From a virus (lineage: Duplodnaviria > Caudoviricetes): a stretch of 64,000 nucleotides of DNA. Under the pieces are notes generated by a model. That model did no database searches, was not told the DNA's origin, and saw only the letters and a list, made by a program, of their open reading frames with translations. The position numbers and the translations under genes were made by a program. The stretch is from the IMG/VR virus record IMGVR_UViG_3300021364_000005; one strand, written 5' to 3'. Shown piece by piece: positions 38,949 to 40,027 of the stretch (position 1 is the first letter of the stretch; each line of letters begins with the position of its first letter).

Positions 38949-39812
38949 GTGGAAAATACAAATCAAAATCCTTTAGGCAAGTACTTTAGACAGCCTAAAA
39001 TATATATCAAGCTACCAAGTGGTGGAAGATTCTATCCTGACGGAGCTCTTGAAGTTACAGATACTGGAGAATACCCTGTATTTGCAATGACTGCAAAAGA
39101 TGAACTGTCAATGAAAACACCAGATGCTTTGCTTAACGGTCAGGCTACAGTTGATGTAATACAAAGTTGTGTGCCGAATATTAGAAATGCATGGATGATG
39201 CCTAGTATCGACTTAGATTCAGTCCTTACTGCAATTAGAATTGCAACTTACGGTGAAACAATGGATCTTACAATAACTGTTCCTAATACAGAAATGGAAA
39301 CAACTTATCAAGTTGATTTGCGTCAAGTAATGGATACTTTTAATGGTATAGATTACGATTCTACAGTACATATTAATGATATGTCTATACATATCAAACC
39401 GTTAACCTATCAACAGTTTACACAAAATGCAATTAAATCATTTGAAGAACAAAGAGTGTTTGCTATTGTTAACGATGAAACTATGTCTGATGAAAAGAAA
39501 ATTGAAATGTTTTCTAAAAGTTTCCAAAAACTTACAGCTTTAACTGTAAATGTTGTTGCTCAAAGTATAGAAAAAATTCAAGTTGAAGAACAAACTGTTG
39601 TAAATCCTATGCATATCATGGAATTTATAAACAATGCTGATAAAAAATTCTATAATGCAATAATGGATCATATGGAACTTCAAAAATCTAAATTTGAACT
39701 TAAACCTATGACTATAGAAGCAACAGATGAGCAAATATCTGCAGGAGCACCTAAAACTTTTGATGTTCCTATTGTGTTGGATGCAGCAAATTTTTTCGTA
39801 TCAGGATCTTAA
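38949..39812 (+). CDS. gp26-like baseplate hub/tail assembly chaperone
   Basis: YFRQPKIYIKLPSGG, AMTAKDELSMKTPDALLNG, QSCVP and IRIATYGETM resemble the T4 gp26/gp51 family. Start set at GTG 38949 after SD GGAG. Confidence 0.75.
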   Translation: MENTNQNPLGKYFRQPKIYIKLPSGGRFYPDGALEVTDTGEYPVFAMTAKDELSMKTPDALLNGQATVDVIQSCVPNIRNAWMMPSIDLDSVLTAIRIATYGETMDLTITVPNTEMETTYQVDLRQVMDTFNGIDYDSTVHINDMSIHIKPLTYQQFTQNAIKSFEEQRVFAIVNDETMSDEKKIEMFSKSFQKLTALTVNVVAQSIEKIQVEEQTVVNPMHIMEFINNADKKFYNAIMDHMELQKSKFELKPMTIEATDEQISAGAPKTFDVPIVLDAANFFVSGS

Positions 39813-40027
39813 CCTGGCCGGTTGACCGTATCCTTAACGAAGTTAAGGAAATGGAAAATCAAGTAAAGAACATTAAGTTAGAAACTTTTAGACTTGCTTG
39901 GCTAATGCGTGGAGGCATGACACTAGATGAAGCGTTTGCGTTAGGGTCCGAAGAAAGAGATATAGTGTCAACACTAGTTAAAGAAAATTTTGAAATAACT
40001 AAAAAAACGCAAATGCCTTACTTTTAA
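39788..40027 (+). CDS. -1 frame extension of the gp26-like gene (GT-like product); alternatively a 58-aa ORF from ATG 39851
   Basis: The -1 frame is open from 39764 to TAA 40025-40027 and reads FFRIRILTWPVDRILNEVKEMENQVKNIKLETFRLAWLMRGGMTLDEAFALGSEERDIVSTLVKENFEITKKTQMPYF. Slippery A_AAU_UUU_UUC lies at 39788-39797. Confidence 0.75.
   Translation, partial: KFFRIRILTWPVDRILNEVKEMENQVKNIKLETFRLAWLMRGGMTLDEAFALGSEERDIVSTLVKENFEITKKTQMPYF

Follow-up and report, generated by a model that had tools for sequence, protein, structure and literature searches.

The gene examined here, a baseplate-hub assembly gene of an uncultured virus with homology to gene 26 of bacteriophage T4, very probably gives rise to two proteins although it is a single gene of family PF12322. 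A short form would end at the regular stop codon and a long form would be generated by a -1 frameshift on the heptamer U_UUU_UUC, the two forms being counterparts of T4 gp26 and gp51. The gene is located in a window of 64,000 nucleotides (nt) of record IMGVR_UViG_3300021364_000005 (the window being the whole stretch of DNA that was analysed, to which all coordinates refer unless stated otherwise). Long-tailed phages are characterised by conserved -1 frameshifts in their tail chaperone genes, with T4 and its relatives as the exception. In a preliminary description of this DNA, a programmed -1 frameshift yielding two forms had been proposed near the 3' end of the gp26-family gene, and this proposal is supported both by conservation of the site and by the coding character of the -1 frame. 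The following features, with lengths in amino acids (aa) and open reading frames abbreviated as ORFs, are central to the argument:

38934-39812, + strand: gp26-like baseplate-hub assembly gene, short form of 292 aa, ending ...DAANFFVSGS before the stop codon (PF12322, phrog_150)
39788-39794, + strand: upstream overlapping heptamer A_AAU_UUU, in phase, clade-specific
39791-39797, + strand: slippery heptamer U_UUU_UUC, 0-frame Phe-Phe, proposed -1 shift site, in phase in all relatives examined
39797-40027, + strand: extension in the -1 frame (76 codons and a stop codon), continuing the body after residue 288, predicted three-helix domain (conservation, entropy, gp51 homology)
39803-39834, + strand: hairpin, candidate frameshift stimulator with outer stem AGGAU(CU)/(GU)AUCCU and inner stem UAACC/GGUUG (covariation)
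39851-40027, + strand: 58-aa ATG ORF of gene callers, the distal part of the extension and not a conserved independent gene (variable first Met)

The gp26-like gene and its slippery site

The source contig is an IMG/VR fragment of 81.9 kb with a completeness estimate of 22%, and such a low completeness at this length points to a jumbo phage. The contig recurs in seawater, estuary and marsh metagenomes. In the 0 frame, the gene runs from the ATG at 38934 to a stop codon at 39810-39812. Its product matches the T4_baseplate family PF12322 with 41.8 bits (gathering cut-off 24.5; E 1.3e-10) over residues 51-256, a six-frame search of the window's own contig against the same family returned 41.2 bits, and phrog_150 ('baseplate hub') is matched by the 292-aa protein at 1.8e-15. 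Structure prediction of this body gave a predicted local distance difference test (pLDDT) score of 88.9 and a predicted template modelling (pTM) score of 0.82. Close to the C-terminus, residues F287 and F288 are invariant in a 12-sequence alignment including T4 gp26 (...EFFELL).

It is at this Phe-Phe pair that the proposed shift would take place. The 0 frame ends with GCA AAT TTT TTC GTA TCA GGA TCT TAA, and both heptamers named in the preliminary description, A_AAT_TTT and T_TTT_TTC, can be read there, overlapping and in phase. Likewise, the -1 frame was found to be open as far as had been stated, from 39764 to a stop codon at 40025-40027; 76 of its codons follow the slip. Whichever of the two heptamers is used, a shift by -1 would result in the same junction ...DAANFF/RIRILTWPVDR... 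(the junction peptide of the window reads ...DAANFFRIRILTWPVDR). The predicted products measure 292 aa (short form) and 288 + 76 = 364 aa (long form). The motif TTTTTTCG occurs three times in the window compared to 2.97 expected occurrences; being found at chance frequency, the motif alone is therefore uninformative, and conservation is what counts. An assembly error at the slip site can be dismissed because independent DNA contigs from two other studies span it with no difference and no gap. In contrast, the contig from an RNA run at this locus covers only 39915-40089 and, hence, shows neither expression nor editing.

Conservation of the heptamer and its phase

A profile search of IMG/VR returned more than 563 relatives, the best 80 of which (51-76% identity) were analysed. 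Together with the 5 closest relatives these make up 85 metagenomic loci, to which 9 cultured jumbo or huge phages and 5 classical T4-like phages were added, giving 99 loci. All 99 carry T_TTT_TT(C/T) where the invariant Phe-Phe near the C-terminus is encoded, and always in the same phase. In the 80 IMG/VR loci, TTTTTTC is without exception in phase and followed by G, and a 76-codon -1 ORF is present wherever the contig extends far enough; heptamer, phase and -1 ORF are also all kept in the 5 closest relatives. Even at approximately 12-35% identity, heptamer and phase are maintained in the 9 cultured jumbo or huge phages. T_TTT_TTC is found at the aligned Phe-Phe of Phosso, Atu_ph07, PA5oct, RaK2, vB_Ec-M-J, fHe-Yen9-04, XaC1 and Vibrio phage 2.275.O, each time with a -1 ORF of about 70-82 codons, and the uncultured 595-kb phage LR756511 likewise combines T_TTT_TTC with a -1 ORF. 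Among the classical T4-like phages, S-PM2, P-SSM2, HTVC008M, phiM12 and KVP40 exhibit T_TTT_TT(C/T) at Phe-Phe and a -1 ORF of 57-63 codons, so that the length of this ORF ranges from 57 to 82 codons across relatives. The only T4-related phage checked that lacks the slip site is T4 itself. Heptamer and phase, a lack of conservation of which would have counted against the frameshift according to the preliminary description, are thus kept in every homologue examined.

The run of T residues is longer in some lineages. Stenotrophomonas phage RAS14 has T_TTT_TTT inside a T7 run (approximately 2125-2140 of the stretch examined), T7 runs also occur in HTVC008M and phiM12, and Ralstonia phage RsoM2USA has T_TTT_TTT inside a T9 run (approximately 2265-2285 of the stretch examined). 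The codon preceding Phe-Phe encodes Asn, His, Ser, Arg, Tyr, Val, Gly, Thr or Asp depending on the lineage, and always ends in T. Where it is AAT, an A precedes it in 38 of 41 contexts, and other lineages use CAT, AGT, CGT, TAT, GTT or GGT. Of the two heptamers that had been put forward, only T_TTT_TTC is therefore universal, and A_AAT_TTT is restricted to the marine clade. The 0-frame stop codon follows Phe-Phe after 0-12 codons (usually 1) across the 99 loci; in 74 of the 80 IMG/VR loci it is located one codon past the heptamer, embedded within conserved -1 codons NTA AGN or NTG AGN. A deviating arrangement was observed in LR756511 (approximately 2700-2790 of the stretch examined), the 0 frame of which continues for 24 codons, with the ATG of the -1 ORF overlapping its stop codon (TAATG); in this lineage, both frameshifting and coupled reinitiation look possible.

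The -1 extension as coding sequence

In the databases, the extension is represented as a 58-aa hypothetical protein. Protein searches with the extension retrieved only ORFs of 51-73 aa without Pfam domains, and the corresponding stretch is unannotated in the GenBank records of PA5oct and RaK2. A tblastn search with the -1 peptide located it in Sinorhizobium phage Phosso and Agrobacterium phage Atu_ph07, in both cases directly after the gp26 homologue and in -1 phase, with alignments that begin at peptide residue 1, i.e. 18 codons before ATG 39851. The N-terminus of the extension reads R-(I/V/L/M)-(R/K)-(I/L)-L in nearly all members. Column entropies of the 63 nt after the heptamer amount to 1.03, 0.62 and 1.52 for -1 codon positions 1, 2 and 3, respectively, a pattern that is the signature of coding sequence and fits the -1 frame starting at the slip site. 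At the same time, no start codon is shared. The first Met of the 81 unique extensions is found anywhere from position 1 to position 56, or is absent altogether; 41 of the 81 have no Met within their first 25 residues, the PA5oct extension does not contain any, and that of RaK2 has its first Met deep inside. Conservation from the slip site on, combined with the missing conserved start, therefore argues against an independently initiated small gene. The possibility raised in the preliminary description that the downstream ORF is translated only from ATG 39851 is contradicted by the same observations, as protein conservation extends upstream of this codon and many relatives have no Met there.

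The extension is predicted to fold into three helices (pLDDT 85.5). A search of BFVD with this fold returned nothing at E <= 0.001, the top rows being uncharacterised phage ORFs of 72 aa.

RNA structure downstream of the heptamer

Downstream of the heptamer, AGGAUCU (39803-39809) can pair with GUAUCCU (39828-39834), forming an outer stem that starts 5 nt after the heptamer. RNAalifold was applied first, to 70 sequences, and the stem was then spotted by eye and tested. Across 69 relatives, 83.6% of the cells in the outer stem are paired, compared to at most 55% if the partner strand is slid, and the 23 cells with double changes were matched by none of 500 shuffles. As an example of covariation, a change of Arg AGG to Lys AAA is offset by a synonymous change of AUC CUA to AUU UUA. 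The inner stem is variable in sequence, but often paired, and many relatives form perfect hairpins of 12-13 base pairs. The stem is used in the minimum-energy fold of 36 of the 69 sequences, and the mean folding z-score of the 60 nt after the heptamer is -1.85, with nine control positions ranging from 0.0 to -0.87. A role of the hairpin as frameshift stimulator is thus likely for the clade as judged from covariation.

Two other stems had been described earlier (39801-39817, and 39831-39838 with 39842-39849). These can indeed be drawn in the window sequence; they are not conserved, since the share of paired cells is 56%, a value also reached in 360 of 500 shuffles, and were rejected.

Correspondence to T4 gp26 and gp51

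In complete genomes, T4 has two PF12322 genes, and PA5oct, RaK2, Atu_ph07, Phosso, S-PM2, P-SSM2, HTVC008M, phiM12 and KVP40 have one each. In the second T4 protein, gp51 (249 aa), a 'catalyst' of hub assembly alongside the chaperone gp26, residues 1-201 match PF12322 (3.9e-52) and are followed by a tail of 48 aa, and T4 gp26 ends three residues past the invariant Phe-Phe. Extensions of T4-like phages match gp51 tails with an hhalign probability of 96.4% (E 1.1e-9), and the P-SSM2 extension aligns with gp51 residues 207-246 by BLASTP (E 4.8e-6). Jumbo-phage extensions, in turn, match those of T4-like phages at E 5.8e-4 and share a ...(S/P)xx(E/D)R... helix with gp51 tails. In addition, a profile of the long form aligns colinearly with gp51 across the slip site. 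As judged from these comparisons, the extension corresponds to the C-terminal tail of gp51, itself a paralogue of gp26. Since homology thus covers body as well as tail, the short form would be the counterpart of gp26 and the long form that of gp51, and hence one frameshifted gene would supply the pair that T4 encodes as two paralogues. Homologues of gp51 also carry a second precomputed Pfam family, PF28602, which probably models the gp51 C-terminal tail.

T4 resembles the window locus in the homologous body with its invariant Phe-Phe, in the short-form-like end of gp26, in the homology of the gp51 tail to the extension, and in the position of both genes as late morphogenesis genes adjoining hub and tape measure genes. 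It differs in having two divergent paralogous genes without a slippery site (GAG TTC TTT GAG), in a TGA codon in the -1 frame, and in the additional internal in-frame product 26'. The window protein also differs from T4 gp26 in length (292 vs 208 aa) and in the loss of the zinc-ribbon cysteines. In T4 (3795-3830 of the stretch examined, - strand), the ATG of gene 25 overlaps the stop codon of gene 26 (TAATG) and is in register with the -1 frame of the latter, which is blocked by the TGA between Phe-Phe and this ATG.

Small genes annotated directly after gene 26 in other phages represent a further parallel. KVP40.0327 and S-PM2p208, both labelled 'gp51' in GenBank, are -1-frame ORFs of 55-57 aa, with T_TTT_TTC at the Phe-Phe of the preceding gene, and the KVP40 record notes that the product is 'similar to a 40 amino acid stretch at the C-terminus of T4 ... 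gp51'. In contrast to the reading given here, both are entered as genes of their own, in records that say nothing of a frameshift. Compared to the extension of the window, those of KVP40 and S-PM2 are shorter (57-60 aa) and nearer to the gp51 tail.

Proposed mechanism and alternative explanations

The favoured explanation takes gene 38934-39812 as the only gp26/gp51-type hub assembly gene of a T4-related jumbo myophage, uncultured and of marine origin. According to the mechanism proposed here, most ribosomes would stop at 39810 and release the short form. A fraction would slip back by one base on U_UUU_UUC, with two tRNA-Phe re-pairing on UUU UUU and the hairpin 5 nt downstream probably assisting the shift, and would then read the -1 frame to 40027, yielding the long form with its 76-residue three-helix tail. 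Short and long form may act together as non-virion chaperones in the assembly of hub and tape measure, in the manner of lambda G/GT.

Several points weigh against this interpretation. The ribosomal shift and its rate are what we infer from sequence, and the U6 run could also allow RNA polymerase to add one U, leading to the same protein. RNAalifold found no consensus structure in the 70 sequences, and the hairpin has little stability in the window sequence (-8.7 kcal/mol, z -0.47), for which reason it is only a candidate stimulator there. The connection to gp51 depends on intermediate T4-like sequences and on profile-profile comparison: the direct match between jumbo-phage extensions and the gp51 tail profile is weak (E 0.002), and the extension profile has no match in the T4 genome at E <= 10. 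Finally, the two CxxC pairs of a zinc ribbon that T4 gp26 and the cultured jumbo phages have kept are lost from the marine clade including the window, where no Cys is present at either pair; this loss is clade-specific and leaves the HMM (hidden Markov model) match unaffected.

Transcriptional slippage, in which polymerase adds one U on U6 and the edited mRNA encodes the same long form, would account for the identical product and for a homopolymer that is present in all lineages and longer in some (T9 in RsoM2USA; T7 in RAS14, HTVC008M and phiM12). Efficient slippage by bacterial RNA polymerase is known for runs of about 9 or more, compared to which six U are short. Selection for slippage would also favour longer runs, whereas the run is nearly always T6 followed by C, and a covarying hairpin at a distance of 5 nt represents the classical geometry of a ribosomal stimulator that is not expected to aid polymerase. 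This explanation is hence considered improbable for the locus, even though polymerase slippage could contribute in the RsoM2USA and RAS14 lineages with their longer T runs. Slightly less credit still is given to two separate genes, as implied by current annotations, with the downstream ORF being translated from ATG 39851 or by termination-reinitiation. Gene callers do report 58-aa ORFs, GenBank does contain separate small genes, and in LR756511 an ATG overlaps the 0-frame stop (TAATG). Amino-acid conservation and codon pattern, however, start at the slip site, 18 codons ahead of ATG 39851; the first Met varies from 1 to 56 and is missing in PA5oct or, in RaK2, found only deep inside; and AAGGA is just 1 nt away from ATG 39851. 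Separate genes would moreover leave unexplained why every lineage maintains, at synonymous sites, both T_TTT_TTC and a preceding codon ending in T, and in T4 gp51 the homologous tail is covalently joined to the PF12322 domain.

The explanation with by far the smallest chance is that a homopolymer error or a real mutation has split one gp51-like gene. A T6 run is typical for indel errors and the fused reading resembles gp51, but the same split is shared by 99 loci of independently assembled contigs and cultured phages, the contigs of other studies show no indel, and the 0-frame stop is embedded in conserved -1 codons. The frameshift on U_UUU_UUC is therefore preferred over these alternatives.

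Genomic neighbourhood

Two further features flank the start of the gp26-like gene:

38897-38904, + strand: TATAAATA, sequence match to the T4-type late-promoter -10 consensus, 30 nt 5' of the start codon; a putative late promoter
35403-38870, - strand: probable tape measure protein of 1155 aa, Ala/Gly-rich, with internal repeats; divergent neighbour (synteny)

Syntenic homologues of the 1155-aa protein in RaK2, vB_Ec-M-J and PA5oct are annotated as tape measure or virion structural protein. Pfam and PHROG searches gave no family match beyond phrog_14121, NCBIfam gave nothing, and BLASTP comparison of the protein and of KVP40.0326 with T4 gp29 was not significant. The protein is a probable tape measure protein, in line with the earlier statement that the gp26-like gene is divergent from the tape measure gene. 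It contains approximately four tandem copies of a unit of about 63 aa (...GGITEG(I/L)GKLFG.EDPIDKLVRF...VKSN.EA.VAF..AMAAS...) and a long hydrophobic, Gly/Ala-rich middle part. In the window, a T4-type portal gene comes after it.

On the other side, a convergent gene encoding 579 aa without family match (40024-41763, - strand) overlaps the stop codon of the -1 extension by 4 nt, which leaves no space for a terminator in between. Further away, a very acidic protein of 329 aa (30660-31649, - strand) with repeated DEEVDESDEDLDEA units is encoded just upstream of the prohead protease gene; its probable role is that of a scaffold or an internal head protein. ORF 31781-32839 (- strand), situated between the genes for head scaffold and protease and that for the portal, carries a CxxxCxxC motif (SYCNAGCPLC) near its N-terminus, which suggests a radical SAM (S-adenosylmethionine) enzyme, for which this would be an unusual location. 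Directly downstream of the head gene cluster and on the same strand, two giant tandem ORFs (1996-12690 and 12694-21348, - strand) encode 3564 and 2884 aa, followed by an ORF of 1125 aa (phrog_8578, unknown function).

Relation to lambda G/GT and other frameshift systems

A conserved -1 frameshift in tail assembly chaperone genes, exemplified by lambda gpG/gpGT, is said to have been reported by Xu, Hendrix and Duda in 2004, and E/E+E' of phage P2 is another tail-chaperone -1 frameshift. Like lambda G/GT, the locus described here combines an X_XXY_YYZ heptamer close to the 3' end, on which a -1 shift would occur, with two predicted forms sharing a common N-terminal body, and the gene adjoins a tape measure gene. 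In S-PM2, a tube-family gene (phrog_45) is followed by gp26/51 and a 1167-aa protein matching the tape measure family phrog_9570 (5e-21), which equals the lambda order V-G-T-H; KVP40 follows this order in part, with a tube-family gene, the gp26-like gene and an unassigned 656-aa protein. In contrast to lambda, the heptamer is U_UUU_UUC instead of G_GGA_AAG, the window gene is divergent from the tape measure gene, and there is no tube gene on the contig. In the E. coli dnaX gene (tau/gamma), two forms likewise arise from a -1 shift, on a heptamer that is followed by a hairpin a few nt further on, but its shifted product is the shorter one, and it has an upstream Shine-Dalgarno-like stimulator, no counterpart of which is evident in the window.

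To our knowledge, it has been unclear for decades what gp26 and gp51 of T4 do in hub assembly. Both are listed as hub assembly chaperones, with gp51 absent from the particle (PMC3004832). In a similar manner, the virion mass-spectrometry list of phage CBB includes the tape-measure-like CBB_251 and lacks CBB_250, and PA5oct gp336 is without the ESI-MS/MS (electrospray ionization tandem mass spectrometry) note that its neighbours carry. Likeness to gpG or gpT was found neither by sequence nor by fold, and no Pfam chaperone family was matched. For the body fold, Foldseek against PDB gave template modelling (TM) scores of at most 0.2, VIA-align wide returned only a generic helical hairpin (Z 8.1), and sequence profiles against PDB yielded nothing. 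The best chaperone-type row in the fold searches was a 'tape measure chaperone' of phage Moogle, which is not significant (E 1.9). Complex prediction for the extension of a relative with the tube protein of the same contig scored 0.00, which is evidence neither way.

The earlier proposal that the gp26 family is the G/GT equivalent hence receives support from the S-PM2 gene order, but none in terms of homology. Functional equivalence is suggested by the same recoding logic, the chaperone listing, the apparent absence from virions and the S-PM2 gene order, and has roughly an even chance of being correct. An equally balanced judgement applies to the evolutionary scenario in which gp26/gp51 would be the tail assembly chaperone of the whole T4 superfamily, a counterpart of lambda G/GT not recognised in this group before, with a -1 frameshift that is ancestral from cyanophages and pelagiphages to 600-kb phages and that T4 and its close kin replaced by duplication into genes 26 and 51.

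Implications

No report of a frameshift in gene 26, gene 51 or jumbo-phage hub genes was found in the full-text literature, the coverage of which does not extend to subscription journals. The frameshift therefore seems to be a recoding event that spans the superfamily and has gone unreported, within a kind of system that is known. If true, many records of the T4 superfamily, including cultured jumbo phages and cyanophages, mis-annotate the frameshift product as a small gene or omit it. With U_UUU_UUC, a stop codon usually one codon later and a hairpin at +5, the site would represent a compact frameshift cassette of natural origin, the conservation of which extends over hosts from Pelagibacter to Pseudomonas. 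Moreover, gp26 and gp51 would be two forms of one chaperone, which affords a concrete hypothesis for the assembly of T4-type hub and tape measure. T4 would then show a recoding signal replaced by gene duplication and, provided that the frameshift is indeed ancestral, would exemplify in nature the exchange of a recoding signal for two genes.

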